A DNA stretch of 64,000 bases, from the NCBI GenBank assembly GCA_021817065.1, contig JAKAWH010000001.1, positions 8,917 through 72,916 of the forward strand. The letters are read 5' to 3'. Below, piece by piece: positions 6,201 to 64,000 of the stretch; the first letter of the stretch is position 1; every line of letters starts with the position of its first letter. Origin of the DNA: Actinomycetes bacterium. Its GTDB lineage: Bacteria; Actinomycetota; Acidimicrobiia; Acidimicrobiales; JAKAVM01. The position numbers were made by a program, and so were the translations under genes. A model generated the notes under the pieces. That model did not search any database, was not told where the DNA came from, and saw only the letters and a program-made list of their open reading frames with translations.

Positions 6201-6529
6201 GCCAGGGTCGTCTCTGCCCCGGTGGCGGTGTCGATCGTCCGAACCGCGTTGCCGGTGAGGTCGGACACGTAAACCTCCGAGCCGGATACCGAGAAGTAGT
6301 AGGGACTCTGGCCCACGCCAAGTGCCTGGCCCGAACCGGTGCCGCCGGCAGCAGTGATCAGTGAGGGCGAAACACCGTCAGCCGGCGCGGGTGCGTTGCC
6401 TACGATCGGGAGCAAGGCGACCGCCACCATCGCCAGGGCGGTCACCGTTGTTCGTGTGAGCATCCGAGCGCTCTTCGTGCATTCCATCCGCAATATCATT
6501 CCGCGGATTCGCCCTGCCCGCCGGCCCAT
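3290..6529 (-). CDS. large secreted repeat protein: about 11 NHL-type repeats, a poly-Pro linker, and six C-terminal GYW..DGG.F.FGDA.F.GS repeats
   Basis: Signal-like N-terminus (MLTRTTVTALAMVAVALLPIVGNAPAPA; alternative start 6463). The unit [SG]GDGGPA..A.L..P.G[VI]..D..G[ND][LV][FY][VI][AT]D..N.R[VI]R recurs. PPPPPPP lies near aa 810. Six units of about 45 aa follow, such as KGYWIVAADGGLFTFGDATFYGST. Confidence 0.85.
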   Translation of the reverse strand: MGRRAGRIRGMILRMECTKSARMLTRTTVTALAMVAVALLPIVGNAPAPADGVSPSLITAAGGTGSGQALGVGQSPYYFSVSGSEVYVSDLTGNAVRTIDTATGAETTLAGTGFFGYGGDGGPSSSAELNQPAGIATDSAGDVFVTDQNNERIREIPSHSGTFFGIPMNAGDIYTVAGSGMAGFSGDGGPATSAKLSLPEGLSLDTEGDVVVADSYNGRVRAIAATDHTAFGIAMTAGDIYTIAGDGTGGILADSGDGGPATSAEIGTPQGVSVDPSGNLFVTEDFFRQAAPVREIPAQSGTFFGIAMKAGDIYTVAGGTSTSVCAAATDTVGDGCPATQATLSDPVDAMTGADGNLYITDYYHDRVRVVNTATGAIATYAGNGTGGDSGNGGPAADANLSLPTGLGVGTGGDLMVSDSSTIRTIDPATGIIEQIAGNGTFSFSGDGGPASDAQFGAPVGVAFDRSGDLFVTDAVNNVVRKIAPDGTISTVAGLGHGVGGIYAAGGYSGDGGTATGAELSMPIGVAVDATGNVYIADSHNYRIRKIAVSSDTISTVAGNGQNVDSGFAGPAGSAGLSDPTAVAVDSAGDLFIADGKGNRVLEIPAASGSHFGIAMAAGNIYSVAGDGNAGYSGDGGPATASTLNDPSGVATDPAGDLLVADRGNDSVREVPASSTNQYGIVMSANDIYTIAGDGTAGFSGDGGPASGAELDTPAGVAMDAAGNLWIADSANHRVREVAAGSGTISTAVGTGQNGIAGEGGPATGAELAVPVGIAVDGSGNVYVGEYAARSGFGYTDANGRVDEVVYSSAPPPPPPPSTGTTAGYWMLDSGGTVYPFGSATAFGSATDLGSAVAMSPVPGGGGYWVVNAAGFVDAFGSARAHTLSGQPGSNVVTIASTPDGGGYWLATATGQVITAGDAQGFGSMAGAKLNKPVVNMVPTPDGRGYWLLAGDGGIFTFGDATFYGSTGSIHLVKPAVAMAPTADGKGYWIVAADGGLFTFGDATFYGSTGQLNPARAPGGSNSIVSALAKPVNGIVVTGDGAGYWMVAGDGGVFAFGDAGFVGSLGNKPPQDPIVAFAPS

Positions 6530-8117
6530 CCGCCGACAAACCCGGGTCCGCCGACAAACCAGAGTCCGCCGACAAACCAGAGTCCGCCGCCTGTCCCGGG
6601 TCCGGTGCGGAGAACACCATCGCAGGGTCGTCGATCCGCCGGAGCTTCATGGCGATGAAGTCGGAGAGGTAGCTCTGGTGGACCTGCCATGGGTAGGCGG
6701 AGCCCTGCTTGGGGAAGCGGTCCGCCGAACGGAGCACATACCCGGCGGAGAGGGGAAGGAGGGGCTGGGCCACTACCGTGGGGTCGGAGTTGGTCGGGGT
6801 GCATTGGGGGGTTCCCTTCGCGCGCATCCGGTTGAGGAGGCGTGCCACGTAGTCACAGGTCAACTCGCATTTGAGGGTCCACGACGCATTGGTGTAGCCG
6901 ACAGCCACAGCGAAGTTCGGCACACCTTCGAGCATCATGCCCTTGTAGGTGAGCTTGCCGGCGATGTCGACCGCCTCCCCGTCGACGGAGAGTTCCATGC
7001 CTCCGACGAATAGAAGCTCCAACCCGGTGGCGGTGACGATAATGTCAGCTTCCAATTCCCCCCCCGATGCAAGGAGCAGGCCATTGGGGGAAAAGGTGTC
7101 GACGTGATCGGTGACCACTGTCACCGTGCCCGCTCGGATCGCCCGGAAGAGGTCCCCGTCGGGGACGATGCACAATCTCTGGTCCCAGGGATTGTAGGAG
7201 GGGGTGAAATGGGTGTCGATGTCGTAGCCGGCGGGCAGCATCGCCCGGAGCTGGCGGCGGAGCAGGCGCTTGACCAATGTGGGACGGTGGCGGCTCAGCC
7301 GGTAGAAGGCCTGGGTGGTAAGGGCCTTGAACCACCGGGCCCCTGGGCCGGACAGACGGTGCGGGAGCAGCCGCCGCAGCACGTTGACCACCGGGTCATT
7401 CGCCGGCAGCGACGCGATATAAGTGGGGGAGCGCTGCAGCATGGTGACGTGATCCGCACGAGCGGCGAGGGAGGGAACCAGGGTGACGGCGGTGGCGCCG
7501 CTGCCGATCACCACCACCCGCTTGCCGGTGTAATCGAGGTCCTCCGGCCAGTTCTGGGGATGCACGATGGTGCCCGCGAAAGTGTCCATGCCTGCGAACT
7601 CGGGCAGGTAGCCGCGGTCGTAGCGGTAGTAGCCGCTGCAGGAGAAAAGGAACCCGCAGGTGATCTCGACCGTCTCCCCGGTGTCGGACCTCATCGCGAT
7701 GACGTGCCAGCGGGCTTCCGCGCGGTGCCAGTCTGCCTGGATGACCCTGTGGTGGAAGCGGATGCTTCGGTCGATACCCGATTCGGAGGCGGTGTCGACG
7801 ATGTAGCGCAGGATCGAGTCGCCGTCGGCGATCGACGCGGCCCCGTCCCACGGCCGGAAGGAGTAGCCGAGGGTGAACATGTCGGAGTCCGAGCGGATCC
7901 CCGGGTACCGGAAAAGGTCCCAGGTGCCGCCGATCGCACCCCGCGCCTCGAAGATCGCATAGCGCGCCCACGGACACGTGGTCTGGATGTGGTGCCCGGC
8001 GCCGATTCCCGACAGCCCGGCTCCCACGATGAGGACGTCGAGGTGCTCCACGGGAGGCGTGGTCCCCGATGCCTCGGATCGCGAGGCAGGAGCGCCCGCA
8101 CCGGATGCCTCAGTCAA
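6378..8117 (-). CDS. flavin-dependent (Baeyer-Villiger / EthA-like) monooxygenase with a repeat-containing C-terminal tail
   Basis: FAD fingerprint VLIVGAGLSGIGAG, then FEARGAIGGTWDLFRYPGIRSDSD and a second dinucleotide fold VVVIGSGATAVTLVPSL. TTG start at 8117; an alternative GTG at 8051 gives MEHLDVLIVGAG. The last roughly 80 aa are low complexity (DSGLSA x3) and overlap the next gene. Confidence 0.85.
   Translation of the reverse strand: MTEASGAGAPASRSEASGTTPPVEHLDVLIVGAGLSGIGAGHHIQTTCPWARYAIFEARGAIGGTWDLFRYPGIRSDSDMFTLGYSFRPWDGAASIADGDSILRYIVDTASESGIDRSIRFHHRVIQADWHRAEARWHVIAMRSDTGETVEITCGFLFSCSGYYRYDRGYLPEFAGMDTFAGTIVHPQNWPEDLDYTGKRVVVIGSGATAVTLVPSLAARADHVTMLQRSPTYIASLPANDPVVNVLRRLLPHRLSGPGARWFKALTTQAFYRLSRHRPTLVKRLLRRQLRAMLPAGYDIDTHFTPSYNPWDQRLCIVPDGDLFRAIRAGTVTVVTDHVDTFSPNGLLLASGGELEADIIVTATGLELLFVGGMELSVDGEAVDIAGKLTYKGMMLEGVPNFAVAVGYTNASWTLKCELTCDYVARLLNRMRAKGTPQCTPTNSDPTVVAQPLLPLSAGYVLRSADRFPKQGSAYPWQVHQSYLSDFIAMKLRRIDDPAMVFSAPDPGQAADSGLSADSGLSADPGLSADGPAGRANPRNDIADGMHEERSDAHTNNGDRPGDGGGRLAPDRRQRTRAG
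6529..6589. repeat. 18-bp tandem repeat (tccgccgacaaaccagag) x3.4
   Basis: Copies start at 6529, 6547, 6565 and 6583 (the last partial). The repeat encodes DSGLSA x3 in the monooxygenase tail and lies at the 5' end of the NHL-repeat gene. Confidence 0.95.
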
Positions 8118-15441: not shown

Positions 15442-16809
15442 GTGAGCGCACTGCTTCCCGAACGTCTTCTTTCGGCCTTCGAGCAGATCGTCGGGCGTGA
15501 CCACGTGATCTTCGATCCCGATCGGCTGGTTTCCTACGACACCGATTGGACCGGGCGATATCGGGGGCACACACCAGCGGTGGTACGCCCCGCGTCGAAT
15601 GCCGAGGTAGCTGCTGTCGTTGCCCTGTGCTCCGGGGAGGGGATCGCCCTGTGTCTCCGGGGAGGAAACACTGGACTAGTGGGAGGGAGCGTGCCCCTGG
15701 CGGGGGAGTGCGTCCTTCACCTGGGTCGCCTCCGCCGCCTCGAGATCGACGCGGATGCTGGTAGGGCATGTGCGGAGGCCGGAGTGAGCCTAGGCGACCT
15801 GCAGGATGCTGCCCGGAGAGCGGGGTGGGAGTATGCAGTCGACTTTTCCAGCCGGGACAGCGCGACGTTGGGCGGGAGCATCGCCACCAATGCGGGTGGG
15901 TTCCGGGCCTTGCGCCACGGCACCACCCGTGCCCAGATTCTCGGGGTCGAGGCGGTCTTTGGTGACGGGCGGGTGGTGTCCCACCTCGCCGGATTGCCCA
16001 AGGAGGTGACCGGTTATGACGTGGCCGCCTTGCTGTGCGGGAGCGAGGGCACGTTGGGGGTAGTGACCGCCGCTTCCCTGCGTCTGGTGCCGCCGTCGTC
16101 CGAGAAGGTGGCGGCGCTACTCGGGTTCTCGTCTACTGACGTCGCCTTTTCCGCCGCCGGTGCACTGCGCCGATGCCTTCCGCATCTGGAAGCGATGGAG
16201 ATCTTTTTCGGAAAAGAGATGTCGCTGGTGAGTACCCGGTTCGAGTTGCCTCAGCCATTGGCGCATTCTTACTCGGCCTACCTTCTGATCGAAGTGGCCG
16301 ACACGACCGATCCGGCGCCGCGGGTGTCGGAGGCGATCGACGGGCTCGCAGGAGTGGGCGAGGTGGCGGTGGCCGTCGGCGCCGAAAGAAGGTCGGCGCT
16401 GTGGCGCTACCGCGAGACGATCCCCGAGGCGATCGCATCGGTGGGGGTGCCCCACAAGCTGGACGTCTCGCTCCCCTCCCGGTCGATCCACTCGTTCGTG
16501 GAGGAGGTGCCGGAAGTGGTCAGAGCGATTGCCCCGGGAGCCGAAACCTGGATCTTCGGCCACGCGGGAGAGGGGAACCTCCACGTCAACGTGTGCCGCG
16601 TGGCAGGGGACGGCGAGACTGTAGACGAGGCGGTCCTCACACTGGTGACGGATATGGGTGGCAGCATCAGTGGCGAGCACGGCATCGGGGTGGCCAAGAA
16701 GCGCTGGTTGCACCTCAACCGGTCCGAGACCGAGATCGCCGTGTTCCGCTCCCTCAAACGCGCTCTCGATCCTGCCGGGGTGCTCAACCCGAACGTGCTC
16801 TTGCCGTAG
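15442..16809 (+). CDS. FAD-linked oxidase (GlcD / D-lactate dehydrogenase-like)
   Basis: FAD-binding PCMH-type region VVRPASNAEVAAVVALCSGEGIALCLRGGNTGLVGGSVP...GGSIATNAGG and C-terminal GGSISGEHGIGVAKK. The GTG at 15442 is preferred to the ORF-track start at 15346. Confidence 0.85.
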   Translation: MSALLPERLLSAFEQIVGRDHVIFDPDRLVSYDTDWTGRYRGHTPAVVRPASNAEVAAVVALCSGEGIALCLRGGNTGLVGGSVPLAGECVLHLGRLRRLEIDADAGRACAEAGVSLGDLQDAARRAGWEYAVDFSSRDSATLGGSIATNAGGFRALRHGTTRAQILGVEAVFGDGRVVSHLAGLPKEVTGYDVAALLCGSEGTLGVVTAASLRLVPPSSEKVAALLGFSSTDVAFSAAGALRRCLPHLEAMEIFFGKEMSLVSTRFELPQPLAHSYSAYLLIEVADTTDPAPRVSEAIDGLAGVGEVAVAVGAERRSALWRYRETIPEAIASVGVPHKLDVSLPSRSIHSFVEEVPEVVRAIAPGAETWIFGHAGEGNLHVNVCRVAGDGETVDEAVLTLVTDMGGSISGEHGIGVAKKRWLHLNRSETEIAVFRSLKRALDPAGVLNPNVLLP

Positions 16810-16840
16810 GGGCGCGTGGAGGCGCTCCCGGCGCGTGCTT

Positions 16841-17635
16841 CTAGGTGTCGACCAACCGTTCCCGGAGGAAAGCGAGTACCTGGTCGAGTGCATCTCGGGT
16901 CGGTTGTCCGACCTCGTCGATGAGGTCTTCGGTGAGAACCGAGTGCGCCAACGCGCGGTGGCCCCACGGGTTGCCCGGCGAGGAGTCGATCTCGACACCG
17001 ATGAAGCGGTCGCCCAGTTCGGAGCGGAGGCGTTCGAAACGCTCGGGTGGCACCAACCGGTCTCCCGTGAATCGCAGGCCGAGCACGCAGACTCCGCCTT
17101 CAGCGCGCTCCTTGACCCGGACGAGATCGGCATCGCAGAGGTGTACGTCCGACTTGGCTGCGCGTATGCCCGGCAGCGAGATTGGGAGCGAGGGCTGGCT
17201 GAGAACCGGTGCAATCATCTCGTCGTCGACCATCATGGCCAGCGCGAACCCGCCTGCCATACACATCCCGACCGCTCCGACCCCGGGCCCCCCGCAGCGC
17301 TCCTTCTCGTTCCGGGCGAGAGCGCGGAGCCACCGGGTGACCGGGGCGGTCGAGCGGGTGGAAAAGGCCCGGAACTCGCGGGAGATGCAGGTGGGTACCA
17401 GTGAGGTGATCGCATAGGGAATGGTCGGATCCCGTCCCGGTGTGCCGTAGAGGTCGGGCAGGACCGCAGTACACCCGATCCCGGTCACGCGACGGGCGAA
17501 TTCGGCGACCTTCGGTGTGATGCCGGGGATCTCGGTCATCACGATCACCGCAGGGCCCTCACCGATCCGGTACACGTCGCGGGTCTTGCTGTCGTGGGTA
17601 TAGACGTCGCGGGAGAAGTCGGTGAGGGGGTCCAC
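16841..17635 (-). CDS. dienelactone hydrolase family protein
   Basis: GPAVIVMTEIPGITPKVAEFARRVTGIGCTAVLPDLYG...VGAVGMCMAGGFALAM has a Cys nucleophile context typical of the DLH family. Confidence 0.75.
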   Translation of the reverse strand: MDPLTDFSRDVYTHDSKTRDVYRIGEGPAVIVMTEIPGITPKVAEFARRVTGIGCTAVLPDLYGTPGRDPTIPYAITSLVPTCISREFRAFSTRSTAPVTRWLRALARNEKERCGGPGVGAVGMCMAGGFALAMMVDDEMIAPVLSQPSLPISLPGIRAAKSDVHLCDADLVRVKERAEGGVCVLGLRFTGDRLVPPERFERLRSELGDRFIGVEIDSSPGNPWGHRALAHSVLTEDLIDEVGQPTRDALDQVLAFLRERLVDT

Positions 17636-17647
17636 CGGATTGTGTCT

Positions 17648-18547
17648 TCAGACACGCACCATCACGACAATGGTCTTGGCGATCTTGTCGTGGAGCGCTT
17701 GATGCTTCTTGTTGAAGAGGGGCCAAAGAAAGTCGAGAATTATCGCGAGAACGGCCATGATGAAGATGACGCCCGGGATTGCGCCGCTTATCGCCGGATG
17801 TGTGGCGATTGTCAGGTAGGGAACTAGAACCAAACAGAAGATGACGGCCATGGTGAAGTATCGGAGCATTCCTTTTGCGAGCCCGGCTTTGCCCCCCGAT
17901 TCCGCGTCGCGCACGGCGATGCCGGTTGCTCGCATTCCAAGTGTCTGACCCCGCTTGGTGCACCAGAACAACCCGTAATACATCGCCGGCGGAAAGAACG
18001 GCGCGATGAAGTCCACGAGAATATCGAAAGCGGTAAGACCTCCGTAGGAGAAGTGACCGTTCTTGCTGAAGATATTGGCCGATGAACCGCTGTTCTCAAT
18101 GAGCGGTGAATGGTGATGGAGCAGGAAGAGCACAATGAACAGATCCACCGCGAGTTCCAGAGCAACCACGATCAGCCAATCGAGGACAAAGGCGGCGACG
18201 CGGAGCCACCAGCCCGACGGCTTCTGATCCGGGCCCCGGCTGTTGATTCGGGAGCGGATCGCCCTTCTGACGTCGGAAGGGGCCAAGGACACGAAAGTGA
18301 TCCCCGGTACGTCGACAACTTTGCCCTTACCGTTCTTCCTGAGTAACCGGCCATCGGGGGTCTGCCAGGCAGGCTTGCCGTCCGAGGCTTGTACCAGCCG
18401 TCCCTGAGGAGGAGCCACGTAGGGTGATGATACCAGCGCCGAGCGGGTTATGCAGGAGGCGCTTAGCCCTCGCATGCAATCCGGCGAGATGGCGTCGAGG
18501 ACTGCATAACCCCTGGTAGAGAAGGTAGTGTTGTCCCGTGGCGCCAC
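17648..18547 (-). CDS. RDD family membrane protein with a DUF2510-like N-terminal motif
   Basis: The RDD core is RVAAFVLDWLIVVALE...RGQTLGMRATGIAVRD...LHDKIAKTIVV. The N-terminal motif is ASDGKPAWQTPDGRLL. The start is uncertain: 18547 overlaps the divergent gene by 10 bp, and an alternative ATG lies at 18475. Confidence 0.75.
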   Translation of the reverse strand: MAPRDNTTFSTRGYAVLDAISPDCMRGLSASCITRSALVSSPYVAPPQGRLVQASDGKPAWQTPDGRLLRKNGKGKVVDVPGITFVSLAPSDVRRAIRSRINSRGPDQKPSGWWLRVAAFVLDWLIVVALELAVDLFIVLFLLHHHSPLIENSGSSANIFSKNGHFSYGGLTAFDILVDFIAPFFPPAMYYGLFWCTKRGQTLGMRATGIAVRDAESGGKAGLAKGMLRYFTMAVIFCLVLVPYLTIATHPAISGAIPGVIFIMAVLAIILDFLWPLFNKKHQALHDKIAKTIVVMVRV

Positions 18548-19851
18548 CGCTGGAGGGGAAATGGGTTACCGCACCGGATGGTCGCCGCGCATTCCGCACC
18601 TCCGACGGTCGCCTATGGCGGAAGGGACCGGATGGGCGACCTCGCCCGGTCTCGGCGGGGGTCGGTGGGCCCCCTCTCCGGGGAGATGGGGGGAAATCGC
18701 GTTCGAGCGCTCCTAACCTCACTAAGGGCAAGAAGGGTGCGAAGCGCAAGCCGATGCCCGCGGGGGTGAAGCTCTTCGTCGCTCTGGTGATTCTGGCAGT
18801 GCTGGTTCTTGGACCGACCGTCATCTTGAACCTCGTCTATTCGACCGGGCATGTGCGCAGCCTCCTGATCGGCAAGGAAGTACCGGGATTTCTACCTGCG
18901 CGCGCCACCGGCCCCACCGTTCCTTGTTCCACGTCCGTGAACGGCCAGTCCGATGGTTTGCCATACGTATGTTTTGCCTCGTCAACTTCGTCCGAGTTGT
19001 TCGCGTCCCCGGTGTTGCCGACGTCGGAACCAACCTACGGAGGCGGGCCTCTGCAGAAGAGCCCGATTGTCTACATGGTCGACTGGGGGGCCGATCCTCA
19101 GCTCTACGCGTCGATGGTCGAGTTTGCCCGTGCAGGGATCAATTCCCCGTGGTCGGAAGCTCTTGGTGCATACGGCATCGGTCCGGGGAAAGTGGGAGGA
19201 GAATTCAGGGATCCCGACAGTCCGAATCACCTGTTCAGCCAGACCGAAGATCCAAAAGCAGATTATTCGCAGGACATCCTCACGATCGCGTCCCGGGCAG
19301 GCTGGAGTCTTGGTCCGAATACCGAAGTGTGGATTGCCGTTACCTATCCGCTCTATTCGGTCGGATTGGCGGCTATTTGCGGGTTTCATGACGTTGTCAA
19401 CAGTCCCAACGGTGCCTTCGACGGGACCTTTGCCGTAGTAACCGACTCGGGGATCTGCCCGGAGGACAGTGCTGCCGTCGCCCACGAGTATGCGGAGTCG
19501 GTGACCGACCCGAACACGCAAGACGGGTATCGGGGCGGCGGCTCCATCCTCGATCCGGAAACCGAAATCGGTGACGTCTGTGTCCAAGCCGGCAACGCGG
19601 TATCGCCGGCCGGAGTGGTCCCGATGATATACGTGCCGAAGTTCGGGTGCACCTGGGGAACGTGGGCTCCTGCGGAAGTCCTCAAGGGAAGTCCTCCTCC
19701 CCCCAGCCTTCCGGCTGCGTGGAATACCTGCTCGGCGAGCGTCCGGTGCGATGGCTGGCTCTACTATCCGCCGTCGGAGCCGAGACCGGCTGGAAACCCG
19801 TTCTGGCGTGATCCCTCAGGGGGTAGCTGGGTCATGGTGGCGGGGAGCTGA
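18538..19851 (+). CDS. membrane-anchored extracytoplasmic protein of unknown function (HExxE motif)
   Basis: The N-terminus APDGRRAFRTSDGRLW is followed by a basic stretch, a TM helix (LFVALVILAVLVLGPTVILNLV) and a Cys-containing domain of about 330 aa with AVAHEYAESVTDPN...EIGDVC. No family was recognised with certainty. Confidence 0.6.
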   Translation: MAPPLEGKWVTAPDGRRAFRTSDGRLWRKGPDGRPRPVSAGVGGPPLRGDGGKSRSSAPNLTKGKKGAKRKPMPAGVKLFVALVILAVLVLGPTVILNLVYSTGHVRSLLIGKEVPGFLPARATGPTVPCSTSVNGQSDGLPYVCFASSTSSELFASPVLPTSEPTYGGGPLQKSPIVYMVDWGADPQLYASMVEFARAGINSPWSEALGAYGIGPGKVGGEFRDPDSPNHLFSQTEDPKADYSQDILTIASRAGWSLGPNTEVWIAVTYPLYSVGLAAICGFHDVVNSPNGAFDGTFAVVTDSGICPEDSAAVAHEYAESVTDPNTQDGYRGGGSILDPETEIGDVCVQAGNAVSPAGVVPMIYVPKFGCTWGTWAPAEVLKGSPPPPSLPAAWNTCSASVRCDGWLYYPPSEPRPAGNPFWRDPSGGSWVMVAGS

Positions 19852-19852
19852 G

Positions 19853-20791
19853 CTACACCTGAATCGCCCTGTCCTTGTAGCGGCGAACCTCACTCACCTC
19901 CATCTCCATCGCTCGACGGTCGGCGTCGGTGAGGTCGTCGCCGGTAAGCGACCTCGGCCACAGGTGGCGTATCCGTACCACGTTGATCTCGGCCGCGTAG
20001 AGAGTGAGCTGGGCGCCCAGGTGGATCCAGGCGAGCAGCCCGATCACCACCGCAAGAGTCCCGTATAGGTGCGAGGCGTGGGCGATCTGGTGGCGAACGA
20101 AATAGTTGCCCGCTATCTGGAGCGCGGTCCAGGAGAGCGCCCCGAGGATCGCGCCGGGGAGTACGTCCCGCCAGGTGAGGTGAATCGAGGTCAGTACCCG
20201 AAAGGCGACCGCGTACAGCCCCGCATTGACCAGGACCGGTCCCGCCAAGCCAGCCACCCAGAACAGGGGTGCCAGAGGCCCGTGTATGCCCCGAAGCACC
20301 GACAGGGCGGTGGAAACCAGCAGGGCGGACCCGAGGGTGGCCAGCAACCCGAGCGCCCGGACACGGGAGGCGGCGAAACTGCCGCGCTCGAAGAAGGGCA
20401 CGTCCCATACTGAGTTCATCGCATTACCGGCTGTCCGGGCCACCCCCAAGCCGGCCCACAGCGCGCCGGCCAAACCGAGGGTGAGGGCCACCCCGCTCCC
20501 GTGGATGGATCCGGTCTTCAGGTAGTCCGAGAGGGAGGGAAACTCCTTCTTCGCCGAGGAGATTATCCGTTCCTGGAGTCCCAGGTCCCCGTGGAGGACG
20601 AATCCCAGGATGGTGACAAGGACGAGGAGGAGGGGGAAGAGCGACAGGAACCCGTAATAGGCGATCAGCGCCGCGCCCGCACCGGCGCGGTCCTGCCCGA
20701 ACTTCTTGGCTACACCGAACGGGAAGCCAAGGAACGGGTGGGATCGCTGGTAGCGATCCAGCCGTGCAAGGAGGGAACGGATACCTTTCAC
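19853..20791 (-). CDS. YihY/BrkB (virulence factor BrkB / former RNase BN) family membrane protein
   Basis: GQDRAGAGAALIAYYGFLSLFPLLLVLVTILGFV with multiple TM helices is the typical YihY signature. Confidence 0.8.
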   Translation of the reverse strand: MKGIRSLLARLDRYQRSHPFLGFPFGVAKKFGQDRAGAGAALIAYYGFLSLFPLLLVLVTILGFVLHGDLGLQERIISSAKKEFPSLSDYLKTGSIHGSGVALTLGLAGALWAGLGVARTAGNAMNSVWDVPFFERGSFAASRVRALGLLATLGSALLVSTALSVLRGIHGPLAPLFWVAGLAGPVLVNAGLYAVAFRVLTSIHLTWRDVLPGAILGALSWTALQIAGNYFVRHQIAHASHLYGTLAVVIGLLAWIHLGAQLTLYAAEINVVRIRHLWPRSLTGDDLTDADRRAMEMEVSEVRRYKDRAIQV

Positions 20792-24390: not shown

Positions 24391-24440
24391 TGGAGCTCAG
24401 TGTCTGATAGAAAACCCATCTACCTGTACTTATCGCCCAG

Positions 24441-24515
24441 TCGGGCTGCCGGGATTTGAACCCGGGACCTCCTGCTCCCAAAGCAGGCGCGCTAACCAAG
24501 CTGCGCTACAGCCCG
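24441..24515 (-). tRNA. tRNA-Pro (anticodon TGG)
   Basis: Manual fold: acceptor CGGGCTG/CAGCCCG, D arm GCGC/GCGC, anticodon arm CCTGC-TTTGGGA-GCAGG, T arm CCGGG-TTCAAAT-CCCGG, discriminator A. CCA is not encoded. Confidence 0.9.
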
Positions 24516-48943: not shown

Positions 48944-50758
48944 ATGACCGGTATTGGTGCACGGTTCGACGACCTGGTTTCCGGGATGAGTTGGGAGATG
49001 TCCGATCCCCTCGGAGTCCTCACGACCGATGAGCTCGCTGACGTCCCCGCCCTCCTTGATGCAGTCGAGAAGGAGGTTCGGACCGGGGTGGTGGCTGCCG
49101 GGTTCGTCAGCTACGAAGCGGCCCCGGCGTTCGATCGCGCTCTGACCGTGCATTCCGTCAGTGGAGGCGGACCGGTACCCCTTGCATGGTTCGGACTTTT
49201 CGGCCGGCGCCGGCCGGTCGATCGACTCGTTCCTCTGGCCGACCCTCTCGATCTGGCTTGGGAGCCGGAGATCGGCGAGGAGGAGCACGCCTGCGCTGTC
49301 GAGGCGATCAAGGAGGAGATCGCCTCTGGACGTACCTACCAGGCCAACTTCACCGCACGCCTCACTGGCACCTACCGTGGCGAGGTCTTTTCCCTGTACC
49401 GGCGCCTGGCTTCGGGGCAGGGTGGTGCCTACAGCGCTCTCCTGGAGAGCGAGCGGTTCGCGATCGCCTGCGCGTCACCGGAGCTCTTCTTTTCGATGGC
49501 CGGCGAGGCGATCGAGTGCCGTCCTATGAAAGGGACTGCCGGGCGGGGTCGCTTCCCCGCCGAGGACGCGGCCGCCTCTGCCTCCCTGCGGTCATCGGAA
49601 AAGGAGCGCGCCGAGAACCTGATGATAGTCGACCTGGTTCGAAACGACCTGGGGAAGATCGCTCGTAGTGGAACCGTGCGCGCGTCCGATCTCTTCGCCT
49701 GCGAGCGGTACCCCACCCTCTGGCAGCTCACTTCGACGGTGAATGGACGGCTGGTCCCGGGCACCGGTCTCACTGAAGTGTTCTCGGCGTTGTTCCCGTG
49801 CGGCTCGGTTACCGGGGCACCCAAACCGGCCACCATGGGGATCATTTCCCGCTTGGAGCGTTCTCCCCGAGGTGTCTATTGTGGGGCGATAGGAATGGTG
49901 AGCGCCGGGAGCGGAGGTCTCTCGGCACGTTTCGCGGTGGGCATCCGCACCGCCACCATAGACAAGCGCTGCGGGATGGTTATCTACGGCACCGGAGGCG
50001 GAATAACCGCCGATTCGGTTCCCGTTTGCGAGTGGGAGGAACTGTGCGCGAAGGCGAACCTCACCACCGGTTCCCAGCCTCCAGAGGGACTCTTCGAAAC
50101 CTTGCGATTCTCCCCGCAGGAGGGTTTGCACGACCTGCAACGCCACCTGGCCCGAATCCAGGCGTCCGCCGAATTCTTCGGTCTCGAATTTTCGCCGTCG
50201 CAGGCTCGCGAGGTGCTCAACTCCGCCACCCAGGGGCTCCACGGGATCTGGCGGGTACGGCTCGTTCTAGGGCGGGACGGGTCGATGCGAGTGACCACCG
50301 AAGAGTACCCGGAGCCGGCCGAGCATCCGGTACGGCTGGCCGTCGACGAGGAGCCGATCGATGAGCGCGACACTGCCTACTTCCACAAGATCACCGACCG
50401 CTCTGCCTACGCCGACCGTGCAGCGCGCCATCCCGAAGCCGATGACGTCGTGCTCGTCAATCGCCGTGGCGAAGTGACCGAGACATCGCGGGCCAATCTG
50501 GCGGTCCGTTTCGACGGCAGATGGTGGACTCCGCCGGTGGAGAGTGGCCTCCTGGCCGGTGTCGAGCGGGGCCGACTCCTGGACGACGGCGTGCTCGCCG
50601 AACGGGTGATCACCGTCCCCGACCTTTTCGTCGCCGAGGGGCTCGCTACGGTGAGCTCGCTGCGGGGATGGTTGGAGGCAGAGATGGTGGGCAGCAACTA
50701 TCCGCGAAGTCACGAGAGCTCACACGGCGGACCTGGCGGCGGACCTGACGGGATTTGA
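48944..50758 (+). CDS. pabB: aminodeoxychorismate synthase component I fused to a class IV aminotransferase (PabB-PabC-like fusion)
   Basis: Chorismate-binding motifs IECRPMKGT, SEKERAENLMIVDLVRND, FPCGSVTGAPK and RGVYCGAIG. The C-terminal roughly 220 aa have a class IV fold (VLVNRRGEVTETSRANLAV). The ATG at 48944 was used. Confidence 0.85.
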   Translation: MTGIGARFDDLVSGMSWEMSDPLGVLTTDELADVPALLDAVEKEVRTGVVAAGFVSYEAAPAFDRALTVHSVSGGGPVPLAWFGLFGRRRPVDRLVPLADPLDLAWEPEIGEEEHACAVEAIKEEIASGRTYQANFTARLTGTYRGEVFSLYRRLASGQGGAYSALLESERFAIACASPELFFSMAGEAIECRPMKGTAGRGRFPAEDAAASASLRSSEKERAENLMIVDLVRNDLGKIARSGTVRASDLFACERYPTLWQLTSTVNGRLVPGTGLTEVFSALFPCGSVTGAPKPATMGIISRLERSPRGVYCGAIGMVSAGSGGLSARFAVGIRTATIDKRCGMVIYGTGGGITADSVPVCEWEELCAKANLTTGSQPPEGLFETLRFSPQEGLHDLQRHLARIQASAEFFGLEFSPSQAREVLNSATQGLHGIWRVRLVLGRDGSMRVTTEEYPEPAEHPVRLAVDEEPIDERDTAYFHKITDRSAYADRAARHPEADDVVLVNRRGEVTETSRANLAVRFDGRWWTPPVESGLLAGVERGRLLDDGVLAERVITVPDLFVAEGLATVSSLRGWLEAEMVGSNYPRSHESSHGGPGGGPDGI

Positions 50759-50813
50759 ACCCGCGACCTCCGGCTTGACAGGCCGGCGTGCACTCCAGGC
50801 TGCACCACAGGTC
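50739..50813 (-). tRNA. tRNA-Asp (anticodon GTC)
   Basis: Manual fold: acceptor GGACCTG/CAGGTCC, D arm GTGC/GCAC, anticodon arm CCGGC-CTGTCAA-GCCGG, T arm GCGGG-TTCAAAT-CCCGT, discriminator G. Confidence 0.9.
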
Positions 50814-51006
50814 CAGGTTGCTCGACATCCGGCGTGTCCCGTATCGGGGCCGAAAGGTCGAGAGACCTTGGAACCCTAGCACGGGGGAGTAGGGCACCCG
50901 GGTGGTGCCCGGATGGCGCGGGCCACAGGGTGCCGAGCGGGCTCGGAAGGCTGCCAGGCCGCGGCGCGTCGGGAGGTCGGGCCGGATAACGTTCTGGACG
51001 GTTCGG

Positions 51007-59806: not shown

Positions 59807-60109
59807 GTACGGCGACCAGCCGCACAGTTTATCGACGCGAGGTTCCGAAGGTCGTCTCAACTCATCGCTCCGGCTCACAAGGCGTTCTCTGGGCGCGCAC
59901 CGCCTAGGGAAACAGGACCCGGATCGTCGAACGGTACAGTCTTGACCGTGGATGGTGAATCATGAAGGGCTGCCGCGCCGACCCTTGTAGCCGCACGGAG
60001 GAGGTAAGTCGGACTACTTGCAATCCCAACTCCCAGATCCGCTTCGCTTCGGTAACTTCCAGCTCCGGATCGAATCCGAGGACGCAACGCTCGTGCACTG
60101 ACAATAAGG

Positions 60110-60763
60110 ATGAGAATGGCGGATCGTAGTGTGGGCATCGGCGGTGAATGGGCACGGCTGCCTAACGGAGAATCTGTATTCGTGGATTCCCTCGGTCGAG
60201 GGTGGGTGCTCGATGCCCGGGGGAGGCTTATAGCAGTTCGCAAACCCCACCTCGCTCGGGCTGCGAACGCCTCCAATCAAGATCCTCCGGTGTTCATGGT
60301 GCTCAAGGCGCCTCTTGTCGAGAAAATACTGATCTGGGGTATTGGAGCCACCCTCGTGTCCAGCGCACTGGTGATAAATGCATGGCACTTCGCGCCCTAT
60401 CTGGTAGTCGGACGTTTAGAGCAGCTTGTCGATGTCCTTTCCGGCTTATTCCTTCTTGTCTTTGGAGTATCGTTTCCGTATCTGGTCTTGCGAACCCGTA
60501 CCGAAGCGAGGCCGGGATCTTTGGTTGTGAAGGCGCGGTTCCGTAACTACCGCGTCGACACCGATCAGTTGATCTCAATCCAGTGGAAGCTAAAGAGAAA
60601 CTTGGGGCCGAAGACGTGGCTCCCCTTCGTGACAGACCCTCGAGGAACCGGATTCTGGATGAGGCGTATCGAGGGAGGTACTTCTCACAACAGCGTCCCG
60701 TTACTGAATGGCCAGTTACAACTTGCAGCTTTGGAAGCGGTTCTCGAATCCGAGTACGATTGA
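60110..60763 (+). CDS. hypothetical membrane protein (two TM plus possible bacterial PH-like C-terminal domain) in a low-GC stretch
   Basis: AAGGA precedes the second ATG (60116). The TM helices are ILIWGIGATLVSSALVINAW and VLSGLFLLVFGVSFPYLVL. No confident family was recognised. Confidence 0.45.
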   Translation: MRMADRSVGIGGEWARLPNGESVFVDSLGRGWVLDARGRLIAVRKPHLARAANASNQDPPVFMVLKAPLVEKILIWGIGATLVSSALVINAWHFAPYLVVGRLEQLVDVLSGLFLLVFGVSFPYLVLRTRTEARPGSLVVKARFRNYRVDTDQLISIQWKLKRNLGPKTWLPFVTDPRGTGFWMRRIEGGTSHNSVPLLNGQLQLAALEAVLESEYD

Positions 60764-60857
60764 CTATCGTGCCACGATCTCGGTGGCGCGAGTGAGGCTG
60801 GTTGTGGGGTTATGCCGGCACAAGGGTGGCATGGCCGGCAATGTCCAGCAACCGGAT

Positions 60858-60889
60858 CTTCCCCCGGCAGGAACTTCCCCCGGCAGGAA
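60858..60889. repeat. 16-bp tandem direct repeat (cttcccccggcaggaa) x2 next to the tRNA fragment
   Basis: Direct reading: copies at 60858-60873 and 60874-60889, followed by a partial ccttgg. Confidence 0.9.
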
Positions 60890-60897
60890 CCTTGGAA

Positions 60898-61014
60898 GGA
60901 CTGAGCACCCCCAACGGGATTCGAACCCGTGCCGCCACCTTGAAAGAGAGAACAAGTATGTCTATCGAGTGACGATGCATGGTATTTGGGCAGTTCAGGA
61001 GGGGTGCTGAGTCC
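60898..61014. repeat. imperfect 14-bp inverted repeat bracketing the tRNA fragment
   Basis: ggactgagcacccc (60898-60911) pairs with ggggtgctgagtcc (61001-61014) in 13 of 14 positions, with an 89-bp spacer. Direct repeats ggctgtaa occur at 61053 and 61065. Confidence 0.7.
60906..60946 (-). other. tRNA-Glu(TTC)-like 3' fragment (anticodon loop to discriminator); putative integration (att) site remnant
   Basis: The minus strand reads CTTTCAA-GGTGG-CGGC-ACGGG-TTCGAAT-CCCGT-TGGGGGT-G. This is an anticodon loop with 3' stem strand, variable region, a perfect T arm, the acceptor 3' strand and the discriminator. No matching 5' half (ACCCCCA plus D arm) lies upstream. Confidence 0.6.
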
Positions 61015-61132
61015 ACCAAGGTGCCTCTCATTGGCCCGAGTTCTCCCCCGTAGGCTGTAAAAGAGGCTGTAACATTATCGCTGAGCGATGTAGCTGAAGA
61101 GGCTCGGGGCTTTCCTCACGATACCGGTATCG

Positions 61133-62332
61133 TTGGAACCTGAGTTCCCGAGCCTGAAGCGCCGGCAAGGCGAGCCTGTGACCATGCTAGTGGCGATGCT
61201 CTACGGCTCGACGGGCGGCTCGGATCTGGCCGTGCTTTTCGTGCTAATGGTGATCTCCATCCCCATAGCGGTAGCCCTGATCCGCAATCGTCGGTACGCC
61301 GAGTCCAATCGCTATTCGCACATGGAGGGGTGGGTGCCGGGCAATCCGGGAGTCGGCGAGTTCCATGGCCTCATCGATGCGCCGCCTTCGCCCTACCGCA
61401 CTGGCGGCCCGAGGGTGGTTGCAGATGAACGGACCGCTTTCGGCAAGCGGGCCTGGATCGTGGCAGGCGCAACTCCGCCCGCTGCACCTCCCGAGTTGAT
61501 CGAAGACCCCGCCGGGGAACCGAGGCTTCCGTCCATGACGATCCCGATCGACCTGCCGGCGACGGAGTGTTCCGTCGACCCCAATGGGGCAACTCCCGAG
61601 GAGCGCCCACAGGCCCCGGCCATTCCCGAGGTGCGCGTGCTCGGACGGGTCGAAGTAACCGCCTGGCACAAGGAACCCGACCGGCGGGTCGTCCCCGAGC
61701 TGGCCTGCTTCCTCGCTCTCCACGCCGATCGACAGGTTCCCGGCGAAGAGATCCGGGCGGCACTGTGGCCGGGCGATCTGGAGACCACCGAGGCGTCGAC
61801 GAAAAGTCTCCACAACGCGGTGTCCCTCCTGCGCAAGAGCCTGGGTGCCCAATTCGTCCCGGAGGCGTCCAAAGGGTCGGGTTACCGCCTGGCTCCTGAG
61901 GTTCGAAGCGACTGGGACCGATTCCAGGAGCTAGTCCGGCAGGCTGTTTCGAGCGGAGAGGAGGTCGAGCTGCTCTCCCAGGCATTGCGGCTCGTACGGG
62001 GAGCCCCCTTCGAGGGAGTTGCTCCCGGCAGCTTCACCTGGGCCTGGACGGAGCTGTACGTGGCGCGAATGGAGGTGGCGGTCTCCCGGGCCGCTGCGCG
62101 GCTCGCGGCTGCCTGCCTCGATGCCAGCGAATACGACACTGCCCGGTGGGCGGTGCTGAAGGGGCTCTCTGCCGCTCCCTACGACCGGCAATTGTGGAGG
62201 AGCTTCCTGACCGTCGCGGCCGGCTGCGGACCCGGTGAGCTGGACCGAGCCGTGAAGCACGCGACATCGGTTCTCGGGGAAGACGTTCACGAGTACGACG
62301 AGCTGATCGAGGGGTTCCGCCAGCGGCGCTGA
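61133..62332 (+). CDS. membrane-anchored SARP/AfsR-like regulator (TM helix, OmpR-type winged helix, BTAD domain)
   Basis: TM helix LAVLFVLMVISIPIAVALI. wHTH VRVLGRVEVTAW...ELACFLALH...EEIRAALWP...LHNAVSLLRKSLG. BTAD DWDRFQELV...ALRLVRGAPFEG...WAWTELYVARME...YDRQLWRSFLTV. Start at TTG 61133 or ATG 61184. Confidence 0.7.
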   Translation: MEPEFPSLKRRQGEPVTMLVAMLYGSTGGSDLAVLFVLMVISIPIAVALIRNRRYAESNRYSHMEGWVPGNPGVGEFHGLIDAPPSPYRTGGPRVVADERTAFGKRAWIVAGATPPAAPPELIEDPAGEPRLPSMTIPIDLPATECSVDPNGATPEERPQAPAIPEVRVLGRVEVTAWHKEPDRRVVPELACFLALHADRQVPGEEIRAALWPGDLETTEASTKSLHNAVSLLRKSLGAQFVPEASKGSGYRLAPEVRSDWDRFQELVRQAVSSGEEVELLSQALRLVRGAPFEGVAPGSFTWAWTELYVARMEVAVSRAAARLAAACLDASEYDTARWAVLKGLSAAPYDRQLWRSFLTVAAGCGPGELDRAVKHATSVLGEDVHEYDELIEGFRQRR

Positions 62333-62406
62333 CCTCTCTGGGGACGAGAGCCCACCACGGGTGCCCGGATGGACAATAACGTAACATCTTTGCTACGCTT
62401 CTACCC

Positions 62407-62838
62407 ATGAGCAACCCGGGTGGCGGCGAAGCTAGCCAGTTCTGGACGGACCTTTCCGTCGACTTGGAAGATCCCGCATTCCTTCGGGAATACATCCGCG
62501 AGTCGGTGAGGATCGCAACCATCGACGGTGTGGTCAATGAACTCGACGAGGCCCGGGAAGCCGCTCACCTCTCCAAAGCCGAGCTCGCCCGCGCCATCGG
62601 AACCGATCCGGCCGTGATACGGCGCCTTTTCTCGGCCGGACACGTCAACCCGACGCTCGGAACCCTGGCCGAAGTCGCTACCGCGTTGGGAATGCGGATC
62701 TTCCTTCAGCCGCTTGACGCCTCGGAGCGCGAGAGATTGACGACCCCGCTTCTCACTGGCCATAGCGTCGACACTCGCGCCCTTGCGGAGTACGCGGGTT
62801 CTCTGCGAGACGAAGGCAGGACTACGACGCTCGCCTGA
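62407..62838 (+). CDS. XRE-family HTH protein (HigA-type antitoxin-like)
   Basis: LEDPAFLREYIRESVRIATIDGVVNELDEAREAAHLSKAELARAIGTDPAVIRRLFSAGHVNPTLGTLAEVATALGMRIFLQP. Confidence 0.75.
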   Translation: MSNPGGGEASQFWTDLSVDLEDPAFLREYIRESVRIATIDGVVNELDEAREAAHLSKAELARAIGTDPAVIRRLFSAGHVNPTLGTLAEVATALGMRIFLQPLDASERERLTTPLLTGHSVDTRALAEYAGSLRDEGRTTTLA

Positions 62839-62849
62839 TCATTCGTGCG

Positions 62850-63371
62850 TCAACCGAGCGATCGGGGATTCCTGCTCCGGTACTCGTCGCCCAGCAGGCG
62901 CACGCCCACATAATCAGCCTTGGTCAATACGGAGCGAAATGGCTTGTCGAGCCCGCACACGATCACAAGCAGCGGCTTGTCCTGCCCCGAATTGACAGCG
63001 TCGTAGTCGAGCAGGCAATAGAGCCGATAATGATGGCGCTTCGGCCCATCTACTCGGACTTCGAACCATCCGGCCAGCTCTTCCTTCATCGCCTCCCAGT
63101 AACCACCACCCACAAATCTCTTGGGAGGCGCGGCCGCCACGGCAGCAAGAACAGCGACCATCGTCGCCCGCACCTTCGGTGGGCATGTGGAGCGGAGGAA
63201 CTCGCGACCGGGGAGGTACTCGGTGGGATCGTCATCCCTGTGGCGCCGGAAGTACACGACGTCATGGACGTCGTCCGACGATGGCGACCTTCTCACCGGC
63301 GAAGGAGCCAGCCGCGTTCGGGCCGGCGTGGGGGGACTGGCACGGCGGCGAGATCGCTGATCCGGCGTCAT
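62850..63371 (-). CDS. Gp49/HigB (RelE/ParE superfamily) toxin-like protein
   Basis: The C-terminal roughly 110 aa read GGGYWEAMKEELAGWFEVRVDGPKRHHYRLYCLLDY...LLVIVCGLDKPFRSVLTKADYVGVRLLGDEY. The Arg/Pro-rich N-terminal extension is doubtful; an alternative GTG start lies at 63257. Confidence 0.65.
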   Translation of the reverse strand: MTPDQRSRRRASPPTPARTRLAPSPVRRSPSSDDVHDVVYFRRHRDDDPTEYLPGREFLRSTCPPKVRATMVAVLAAVAAAPPKRFVGGGYWEAMKEELAGWFEVRVDGPKRHHYRLYCLLDYDAVNSGQDKPLLVIVCGLDKPFRSVLTKADYVGVRLLGDEYRSRNPRSLG

Positions 63372-63408
63372 TCCTGCGTGTCCGCCTTCGCCTTACAACG
63401 ATGCTTCA

Positions 63409-64000
63409 CTACACCTCCCCGCGTACCCGGCGGGTCCATTCGGGGACCTCGAACCAGGGGACCACCATGATGCGTTCCATCCCGCGACCCGGGGCCAGGC
63501 ACAGCGCGGTGCCGGGCGGAAGGTTGTGGATGGCGTTGATGGGAAGGCGGGGGCGCCAGGTGGACGAGTGGGTGGTGGAAGAAAAGCCCTTGCCGGTCAA
63601 TGTTGCGAAACCATCGGGAACCGAGATGGAGGATGTGGGGACCTGGTGGTCGCCCCCCAGCGAGGAGAGGAGCTGGAGGGTCCAGGGATCGCCGATGCCA
63701 GGGAGGACCACCTTCACCGAGAACAGTGAGAAGAAGCCTTCGGCAGCGGTGCCCCATCGCGCCCTTCCCTGGGAGAGGTCCTGCATGCAGGCGAGGGTGA
63801 CCAGGCCCTGGCCGGCTCCTTCTGCGGCTATGGAAGGCAGCGAGGGGATCGGGGCGATGTTGGCCACCTCGTCCAAGGCGAACACCACCGGAGCGGCGTC
63901 GGGGTGGCGGGAGCGGCGAGCGTAGACGGCCGAGCGCACTTGCTCTACCACCGCGACCACCAAGGGAGTCAAGCGGTCCTGGGCTTCGGACGGCGAGCAG
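63409..64000 (-). CDS. type IV secretion coupling protein (TraG/TraD/VirD4 family), C-terminal part; the ORF is open to the window edge
   Basis: VVFALDEVANIAPIPSLPSIAAEGAGQGLVTLACMQDLSQGRARWG...VVLPGIGDPWTLQLLSSLGG matches the TraG-D_C pattern. The frame has no stop between 63972 and 64000. Confidence 0.7.
   Translation of the reverse strand, partial: CSPSEAQDRLTPLVVAVVEQVRSAVYARRSRHPDAAPVVFALDEVANIAPIPSLPSIAAEGAGQGLVTLACMQDLSQGRARWGTAAEGFFSLFSVKVVLPGIGDPWTLQLLSSLGGDHQVPTSSISVPDGFATLTGKGFSSTTHSSTWRPRLPINAIHNLPPGTALCLAPGRGMERIMVVPWFEVPEWTRRVRGEV

Follow-up and report, generated by a model that had tools for sequence, protein, structure and literature searches.

Does a solitary 3′ piece of a tRNA-Glu gene mark the point where foreign DNA entered the chromosome of an uncultured Acidimicrobiales bacterium, and if so, what kind of element lies beside it? 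The piece occupies positions 60906-60946, minus strand, of a 64,000-nucleotide stretch of contig JAKAWH010000001.1 (assembly GCA_021817065.1), which we call the window. A sequence-only reading of this DNA had taken the piece, hereafter the stub, as the edge of an integrative and conjugative element (ICE) lying to its right, and had predicted an intact tRNA-Glu and an integrase beyond position 64000. We find that the stub is probably the attR-type scar left by E1, a small mobilizable element that targets tRNA-Glu.

The stub is 41 nt long and reads, in order, as the UUC anticodon loop (CTTTCAA), the 3′ strand of the anticodon stem (GGTGG), the variable loop (CGGC), a perfect T arm (ACGGG-TTCGAAT-CCCGT), the 3′ acceptor strand (TGGGGGT) and the discriminator (G). 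No 5′ half of a tRNA is present there. The 41-mer is the exact 3′ part of genuine tRNA-Glu(UUC) genes (41/41 identity). Identity with other tRNA-Glu copies extends 5 nt into the trailer (60901-60905), and the start of this trailer (CTCAG, CTCAGTCCTTCC) is like the trailers of intact tRNA-Glu genes elsewhere. On its other side the stub meets foreign DNA at 60946/60947. ARAGORN calls no tRNA at 60906-60946, where the complete cloverleaf of a functional tRNA gene is lacking; the only tRNAs it reports in the window are tRNA-Pro(UGG) at 24440-24515 and tRNA-Asp(GUC) at 50738-50814, both on the minus strand. The Rfam tRNA model gives a partial match that skips the D-arm region and scores 17 bits against a gathering score of 29. 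The 26-mer formed by the T arm and acceptor strand has one copy in the window, with 0 expected from 100 shuffles. Sequence, ARAGORN, Rfam and the 41/41 identity thus agree with the sequence-only reading that this is a clean tRNA 3′ portion, from anticodon loop to discriminator, without a 5′ half. The outcome it had named as fatal, a complete functional tRNA across 60898-61014, did not occur. A search of viral contigs with the 41-mer returned no match. We also considered Logan contigs that break inside the T arm (an end at 60930, a start at 60917) as a sign of excision polymorphism and rejected this, because such breaks follow from k = 31 and the 46-nt block (60901-60946) that is common to other tRNA-Glu copies.

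The same 41-mer is found at many other loci. An exact-match scan of JGI metagenome contigs gave at least 120 stretches, of which 80 loci were examined. At about 58 of the 80 it forms the 3′ part of an intact tRNA-Glu(UUC) gene, in Glu-Asp-Phe or Pro(CGG)-Glu clusters, and at about 20 it stands alone as a 3′ fragment. Two loci have the intact gene and the fragment as direct repeats. In L107 (848-8598) these are 7.7 kb apart and enclose an island with a tyrosine integrase, a sigma factor and DprA; in L178 (4211-9677) they are 5.4 kb apart and enclose an island with a GGDEF-EAL protein and no integrase. In L113 (3482-11966), an intact tRNA-Glu(UUC) is followed by a pSAM2-type element carrying an integrase, RepSA and an FtsK-like protein. 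Because intact genes, fragments and these three islands all occur, the 3′ end of tRNA-Glu(UUC) is a recurrent integration site. All three islands have fragments with a TTGATCAG motif, upstream of the core by about 45 nt. The tRNA-Asp(GUC) of the window is solitary; in most metagenome relatives with this tRNA-Glu, tRNA-Asp is the middle member of the Glu-Asp-Phe cluster.

Exact-protein look-ups gave contigs that extend the window to the right. One of them, L007, matches the window at 99.99% identity and extends to window-equivalent position 72823. From the stub outward, E1 consists of genes for a SARP-like regulator (+), an XRE protein (+), a 173-aa protein (-), a coupling protein (-), the C-terminal part of a relaxase (-), a nested block of recombinases (+), the 589-aa N-terminal part of the relaxase (-) and an HTH_17 protein (-). 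Beyond HTH_17, L007 continues with a BNR-repeat protein and then a TIG-domain protein interrupted by the contig end. The relaxase is of the MOBF family (TrwC, 7.5e-78). The coupling protein was correctly recognized from the letters as TraG/VirD4-like: its C-terminal TraG-D_C domain scores 4e-19 on the window part and about 1e-18 on the extended gene. E1 lies on the high-coordinate side of the minus-strand stub, that is, the stub is at the low-coordinate end, in keeping with the geometry first proposed.

A sister element, E2, ends in the same manner. E2 occupies L098 9716-18470, on contig DAHVPN010000001.1 (248,540 bp) of GCA_027318265.1, the same metagenome-assembled genome as E1. Its genes run HTH_17, relaxase, coupling protein, 240-aa protein, SARP-like regulator (opposite strand), XRE/M78 protein and DUF3368 protein, followed by a tRNA-Glu fragment. 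The E2 relaxase (P0027) is intact at 987 aa and 53% identical to that of E1, and the coupling protein has 449 aa. The fragment, L098 18429-18470 (CTCTCAAGGTGGAGACACGGGTTCGAACCCCGTTGGGGCTG), is a tRNA-Glu(CUC)-like 3′ part that begins exactly at the anticodon loop and sits at the same end, and in the same orientation relative to its element, as in E1. Between the E1 and E2 fragments, 5 of 41 positions are different, among them the anticodon (UUC versus CUC) and acceptor position 71. Local alignment of the two element arms (about 60983-61089) scores 64, compared with a mean of 16.2 (standard deviation 2.3, maximum 28) for 1000 mononucleotide shuffles. The trailers beyond the tRNA 3′ end are unrelated (15 versus 14.3 shuffled), so that E1/E2 similarity stops at the tRNA 3′ end. 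Common element arms beside different chromosomal flanks are what attR junctions are expected to show, and we read both ends in this way. With E2 ending alike, and a relaxase and a coupling protein present, the earlier view of the stub as the terminus of a mobile element with conjugation-type genes is sustained.

The records of both relaxase proteins lead us to infer that E1 and E2 are on one 248,540-bp contig; looking up a protein from close to the start of the window gave only a short Logan contig and no placement on that 248.5-kb contig. From the contig ends, which do not overlap, E1 and E2 may be neighbours separated by about 18 kb. The E2 fragment is flanked by a 1860-aa TIG-repeat gene (L098/L099 18677 onward), and a type I restriction-modification system lies beyond the HTH_17 end of E2. 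ARAGORN also reports a 95-nt tRNA-Arg(CCG) within the XRE/M78 gene of E2 (L098 16718-16812), which is probably a false positive.

Two other relatives carry a tRNA at the end where E1 and E2 carry their fragments. One has a 402-aa integrase and tRNA-Thr(CGU) at its SARP end; in the other, 245 nt separate the SARP gene from an intact tRNA-Ala(UGC). Both support the SARP end as the probable element terminus. Throughout this element family the SARP-like gene accompanies the coupling-protein gene, next to which its homologues lie in L097 (59% identity), L098 (37%), L222, L225 and L231. L236 was set aside as a comparison, being a badly decayed copy without a tRNA. Another locus, L234, has three tandem tyrosine recombinase genes (329, 315 and 398 aa; 16760-19886) beside a badly decayed relaxase module, an arrangement like that of recombinase-in-trio elements.

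Comparison with E2 also sorts the repeats that the sequence-only reading had listed around the stub. The 16-bp tandem repeat is exact, and the 13/14 inverted repeat (60898-60911 with 61001-61014) is real and longer than first described, being prolonged by 60885-60895 and 61016-61026. Neither is borne out as a conserved att feature, since E2 has no counterpart of either. On the minus strand the inverted repeat folds better than expected (z = -3.7; 0 of 200 shuffles as good), with a 24-bp imperfect stem enclosing the T arm. The ggctgtaa repeats at 61053 and 61065 are present as described and are conserved in E2 as two copies of TTACAGCC, on the other strand and 11 nt apart; the tRNA-Ala relative, L231, has an analogous but different repeat, two copies of GGTGTGTCAA, upstream of its SARP gene. 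SARP regulators bind direct repeats about 11 nt apart, and by this analogy the AGGCTGTAA repeats of E1 may be SARP-type operators. An 18-nt box in the arm, TCCTGAACTGCCCAAATA, has an 18/18 match only in copies of E1 and E2 among 225 loci and may be a protein-binding site. Its five matches in viral contigs were dismissed as unrelated coding sequence, at about chance level by our own estimate.

The region beyond the window contains the predicted integrase gene, at window-equivalent 65599-66663, and this gene turns out to belong to a nested insertion and not to the island. The E1 relaxase gene is split by an insert of about 3.0 kb (L007 13046-16055, window-equivalent 65452-68461) that encodes a 354-aa tyrosine recombinase, a 102-aa HTH_26 protein and a second, divergent tyrosine recombinase of 480 aa (XerC 5e-5, PHROG integrase 1e-6). 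Because the integrase gene, which encodes the 354-aa recombinase, lies inside this insert, it is not E1's own. The insert has a terminal inverted repeat (CACAGGTTCG / CGAACCTGTG) and interrupts the relaxase sequence between CAGTTGCCC and GAGATCGAC. Relative to the intact relaxase P0020 (878 aa, 63% identity), the N part corresponds to residues 1-557 (ending DDRQLP) and the C part to residues 558-832 (beginning EIDAGG). The Pfam AAA_30 domain is accordingly divided at 129/130, with positions 1-129 ending the 589-aa protein and 130-190 beginning a 331-aa protein. The same insert, with proteins about 94% identical, is found at the same codon (DDRQLP/EI) of another relaxase that is 57% identical (L222, L223 at about 4431-7440, and L224), and the truncated relaxase product is 589 aa in both hosts. 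The nested insertion, which hits one codon in both relaxase genes, is the most unusual item of the neighbourhood. Contigs break or change flank at the insert ends, as expected of a multi-copy element. A plasmid search found relatives of the insert's integrase-HTH pair at about 68% nucleotide identity and none for the att region; similar integrase-HTH(-integrase) units are carried by Mycobacterium, Rhodococcus and Streptomyces plasmids. Nothing relevant was found in the literature on recombinase insertions in relaxase genes. From 11040 onward, contig L008 leaves the nested element 184 nt short of the end that faces the relaxase N part and continues into different DNA, with an Arm-DNA-bind_4 remnant and genes for a PemK toxin and a sulfate transporter; this is either another copy of the nested element or a chimeric assembly.

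E1 has a further lesion in its coupling protein. At 79% identity, the 341-aa product covers residues 115-452 of its intact L097 counterpart (465 aa). It lacks 114 N-terminal residues, including the Walker A motif GPPRSGKTS that is kept in the L097, L098 and L231 proteins. The split relaxase and the missing Walker A region are two inactivating lesions, and on sequence grounds E1 appears to be a fossil whose mobilization module is inactivated and which is probably now unable to excise or transfer by itself.

These features are consistent with a short history. A small mobilizable element, E1, would have integrated site-specifically in tRNA-Glu(UUC), displacing the 3′ end of the gene. A tyrosine integrase would have made the junction, by a crossover placed between the anticodon loop and the T loop. 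The E1 arm (60947 to about 61125) abuts the tRNA core, and the DNA left of 60906 would be the old tRNA trailer. With its relaxase gene split by the 3.0-kb two-recombinase element and its coupling protein without the Walker A region, E1 would now be a fossil.

Several observations weigh against this history. The 8.8 kb beyond the window holds no second copy of the 41-mer, no intact tRNA-Glu and no 5′ half (at up to 5 mismatches). L007 has no other tRNA or significant direct repeat in that stretch. The intact tRNA-Glu predicted beyond 64000 was hence not found, and the regenerated tRNA is absent from the recovered sequence, where the contigs end: every assembly stops within a hypervariable TIG-domain gene, at window-equivalent ~72.8 kb, and a search for homologues of the incomplete protein at the L007 end gave no full-length match. 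The 23 kb around E2 likewise lacks an intact tRNA-Glu, a 5′ half and another copy of the repeat, and neither a partner att site nor a tRNA-Glu or its 5′ half lies in the 10 kb beyond the E2 relaxase. No cognate integrase was seen for E1 or E2 in reachable sequence. At the stub itself, the element side reads TCTCT, whereas the roughly 20 other fragments all keep CCACC, the 5′ strand of the anticodon stem; this replacement leaves the core without obvious symmetry. On the chromosomal side, the 215-aa gene is a low-GC orphan. A tRNA scan of 33 distant relatives gave no tRNA-Glu beside the conserved operon described below. Finally, every strain sampled has the element (at least 8 contigs, 99.5-100% identical, drawn from several samples), and no empty site was found.

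The nearest genome relatives have 44-56% identity in the Nuo51-like protein. The ApbE-ferric reductase-Nuo51-like-ferredoxin operon is kept in 66-69 relative loci, and nothing from the 215-aa gene onward is conserved. The sequence-only reading had named conservation and synteny in all relatives as an outcome that would speak against an island, and these loci do not show it. A comparison with strains lacking the insertion had also been proposed, and no such relative was found: among the at least 8 close contigs, every one reached by exact look-up of the 215-aa, XRE or 173-aa protein has this same arrangement, and relatives in the genome collection, at 56% identity or less, are too distant to inform. 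A dip in GC content at 60007-61206 (54-58% versus about 66%) spans the 215-aa gene and the junction. Because it covers this orphan gene, the DNA on the supposed chromosomal side is possibly foreign too, and the 215-aa gene may be older foreign DNA. A second, older tRNA fragment to the left of that gene was sought and rejected, as only short, weak repeats are present there.

Other explanations of the stub share some of this evidence. It is unlikely, in our estimate, that the stub is the low-coordinate end of a larger and possibly active ICE whose regenerated tRNA-Glu and own integrase lie beyond the 8.8 kb. Such an element would fit a stub that is 100% identical to a functional tRNA and shows no decay. 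Its far side would be out of view because the assemblies all break at ~72.8 kb in the hypervariable TIG-domain gene, and a BNR-repeat homologue inside the relative L225 implies that the element may reach further. Against this stand the split relaxase, the coupling protein without Walker A and the lack of VirB4 or other mating-pore genes here or in L097, L098, L222, L225 and L231; if E1 and E2 are neighbours, another ~25 kb passes without a tRNA-Glu. More doubtful still is a single composite island built by accretion at one tRNA-Glu, with the window stub as its outermost scar and the E2 fragment as an internal one. Both fragments are oriented alike relative to their elements, two contigs of one sample end and start in TIG-domain genes beside E1 and E2, both relaxases appear to be on the 248.5-kb contig, and accretion is common for such elements (PMC5704250). 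The 5/41 differences, UUC versus CUC among them, fit better with two different tRNA-Glu genes, the E1 and E2 contig ends have no overlap, and no full-length match was returned for the incomplete TIG protein.

We give very little credence to a tRNA-like segment carried by the element itself, attP-like with element DNA on both sides and brought in by another route. The left flank is indeed low-GC orphan DNA, the long inverted repeat links the trailer with the element arm, and no partner site was found in the 8.8 kb beyond the window. Yet the E1 and E2 trailers are unrelated where their arms are homologous, and the trailer start (CTCAG, CTCAGTCCTTCC) resembles intact tRNA-Glu trailers elsewhere. 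Least credible of all is an origin without mobile DNA, in which a tRNA-Glu decayed in place or the locus encodes a functional structured RNA, tRNA-like and closed by a long stem. The minus-strand fold that beats its shuffles (z -3.7), with its 24-bp imperfect stem around the T arm, would suit the latter. However, two independent elements have their boundary precisely at the anticodon loop, E2 does not keep the stem, and no Rfam family matches; because the four strain variants are identical across 60760-61200, they offer no covariation for an RNA structure. The integration scar of E1 thus stays our preferred reading of the stub.

What kind of element is E1? No VirB4 or other mating-pore Pfam families were seen in L007 or in the relatives L097, L098, L222, L225 and L231. 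A relaxase and a coupling protein, the hallmarks of an ICE, are present and both genes are damaged. Since mating-pore genes are lacking here and in five relatives, ICE is too strong a term, and the integrated conjugative element first proposed gives way to a mobilization module. The conserved set of HTH_17, MOBF relaxase, VirD4-type coupling protein and SARP-like regulator would, from its gene content, work like an integrative and mobilizable element (IME): it has its own relaxase and no mating pore. An integration module with two att sites is not seen, as E1 has one att-type end, no cognate integrase and no second site. Neither RepSA nor FtsK/TraB, the marks of actinomycete ICEs (AICEs), was found in L007, nor was the RepSA/FtsK pair seen in these relatives.

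Displaced tRNA 3′ fragments generally mark island ends (Islander, PMC4383910). E1 resembles such tRNA islands in having a displaced fragment that is identical to the tRNA, starts from the anticodon loop and lies at the distal end in the predicted orientation. It differs in that the regenerated tRNA and an island integrase were not found in reachable sequence; the only recombinases found in E1 (354 and 480 aa) lie in the 3.0-kb insert, which leaves the cognate integrase of an Islander island without a candidate. With IMEs and their decayed derivatives (PMC5704250, PMC5357655), E1 shares its small size, own relaxase, lack of mating-pore genes and tRNA-linked end, and its decay and possible tandem arrangement are features described as common in these elements (PMC5704250, PMC5357655). 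Canonical IMEs have MobP, MobQ, MobV or MobC relaxases and no coupling protein (PMC5704250), whereas E1 has a MOBF (TrwC) relaxase, a VirD4-type protein, a SARP-like regulator and an Acidimicrobiales host, and its integrase is missing. The pSAM2-type AICEs are alike in host phylum and in targeting tRNA 3′ ends, one of them at this very tRNA-Glu in L113; in contrast, E1 is without RepSA and FtsK/TraB, and its transfer genes are of the single-strand type (relaxase and VirD4). ICEs of the type IV secretion class share the MOBF relaxase, VirD4-type coupling protein and tRNA att site, and differ from E1 with its missing VirB4, mating-pore and integrase genes and its disrupted relaxase and coupling protein. 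The nested element has its own parallel in Firmicute IMEs, which integrate inside ICE conjugation genes such as traG or in oriT (PMC5704250, PMC7563843). Like them, it sits within a conjugation gene, at a single fixed position that is the same in two different elements; unlike them, it targets the MOBF helicase domain, has two tyrosine recombinases with an HTH protein and short terminal inverted repeats, and carries no relaxase of its own.

Taken together, E1 and E2 could represent an undescribed Acidimicrobiales family of mobilizable elements (MOBF, VirD4-type and SARP-like) that integrates at tRNA genes, here two tRNA-Glu isoacceptors, via a common att arm. In the same proposal, which we hold tentatively and at a little short of an even chance, this family is parasitised by a 3.0-kb two-recombinase element that is site-specific for the DDRQLP/EI relaxase codon and disables transfer, maybe reversibly. 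If confirmed, MOBF, coupling-protein and SARP modules with tRNA-linked ends would widen the range of mobilizable elements, and a recombinase element that strikes different relaxase genes at one and the same codon would provide a new case of mobile DNA targeting conjugation genes. The biology of the stub itself is mainly confirmatory, as tRNA 3′ fragments at island ends are already well understood. It fixes one exact foreign-DNA boundary (60946/60947) in a poorly sampled lineage, and the locus carries a lesson for annotation: an integrase beside conjugation genes need not belong to the island. Coordinates of the features in the window are collected in the table.

Table. Features at and around the tRNA-Glu stub, in window coordinates.
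Feature	Position	Strand	Basis or remark
Orphan gene, 215 aa, trailer side	60116..60763	+	In GC dip; outside conserved operon
Exact 16-bp tandem duplication, CTTCCCCCGGCAGGAA x2	60858..60889	+	Trailer, chromosome side; no counterpart in E2
Left arm of long imperfect inverted repeat (tRNA acceptor end and trailer)	60885..60911		Not kept in E2
Displaced tRNA-Glu(UUC) 3′ part, probable attR-type junction core	60906..60946	-	ARAGORN/Rfam; 100% identity to intact genes
Element-side junction arm, common to E1 and E2	60947..61125	-	Local alignment
18-nt box TCCTGAACTGCCCAAATA	60983..61000	-	36 nt from anticodon loop in E1, 35 nt in E2
Right arm of long imperfect inverted repeat, within element arm	61001..61026		
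Direct repeats AGGCTGTAA x2	61052..61072	+	12 nt apart; ~110 nt upstream of SARP-like gene
SARP/BTAD-like regulator, 382 aa	61184..62332	+	Weak Trans_reg_C and BTAD Pfam matches
XRE-family HTH protein, 143 aa	62407..62838	+	HTH_3, 7e-9
173-aa protein, distant Gp49/RelE-superfamily candidate	62850..63371	-	Via homologues
VirD4/TraG-type coupling protein gene, 341 aa, N-terminally shortened	63409..64000, on to window-equivalent 64434	-	TraG-D_C

The names first given to the remaining genes between the stub and the coupling protein were compared with profile searches of these proteins and their homologues. The 382-aa regulator, called BTAD at the outset, has Trans_reg_C and BTAD domains in the right order at scores below the Pfam cut-offs (19.8 and 17.9 bits), and its homologues carry PF03704/PF00486 and are named SARP by JGI. 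The XRE assignment is upheld by its HTH_3 match. The 173-aa protein had been labelled a Gp49/HigB-type toxin. Direct profile searches of Pfam, NCBIfam and PHROGs gave no match for it; 8 of 30 homologues match Pfam Gp49 (best 9e-5), which weakly suggests that the label is right. A profile of the family matches the RelK toxin 3oei in the PDB weakly (E 0.18). The single-sequence structure model, at a predicted local distance difference test score of 55, is too poor for use, and the fold search was uninformative.

On the far side of E1, BNR-repeat and TIG-domain surface-type genes follow at L007 19400-20417, where strains differ by 7% compared with less than 0.5% elsewhere. Upstream of the HTH_17/relaxase operon, at L007 17985-18120 (window-equivalent 70391-70526), are iteron-like repeats made up of three copies of GGTTCCCC and then two inverted copies of GGGGAACTATCC, which may be an oriT or an operator. 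Comparable GTGTCCCC repeats occupy the same place in L231 (9852-10167).

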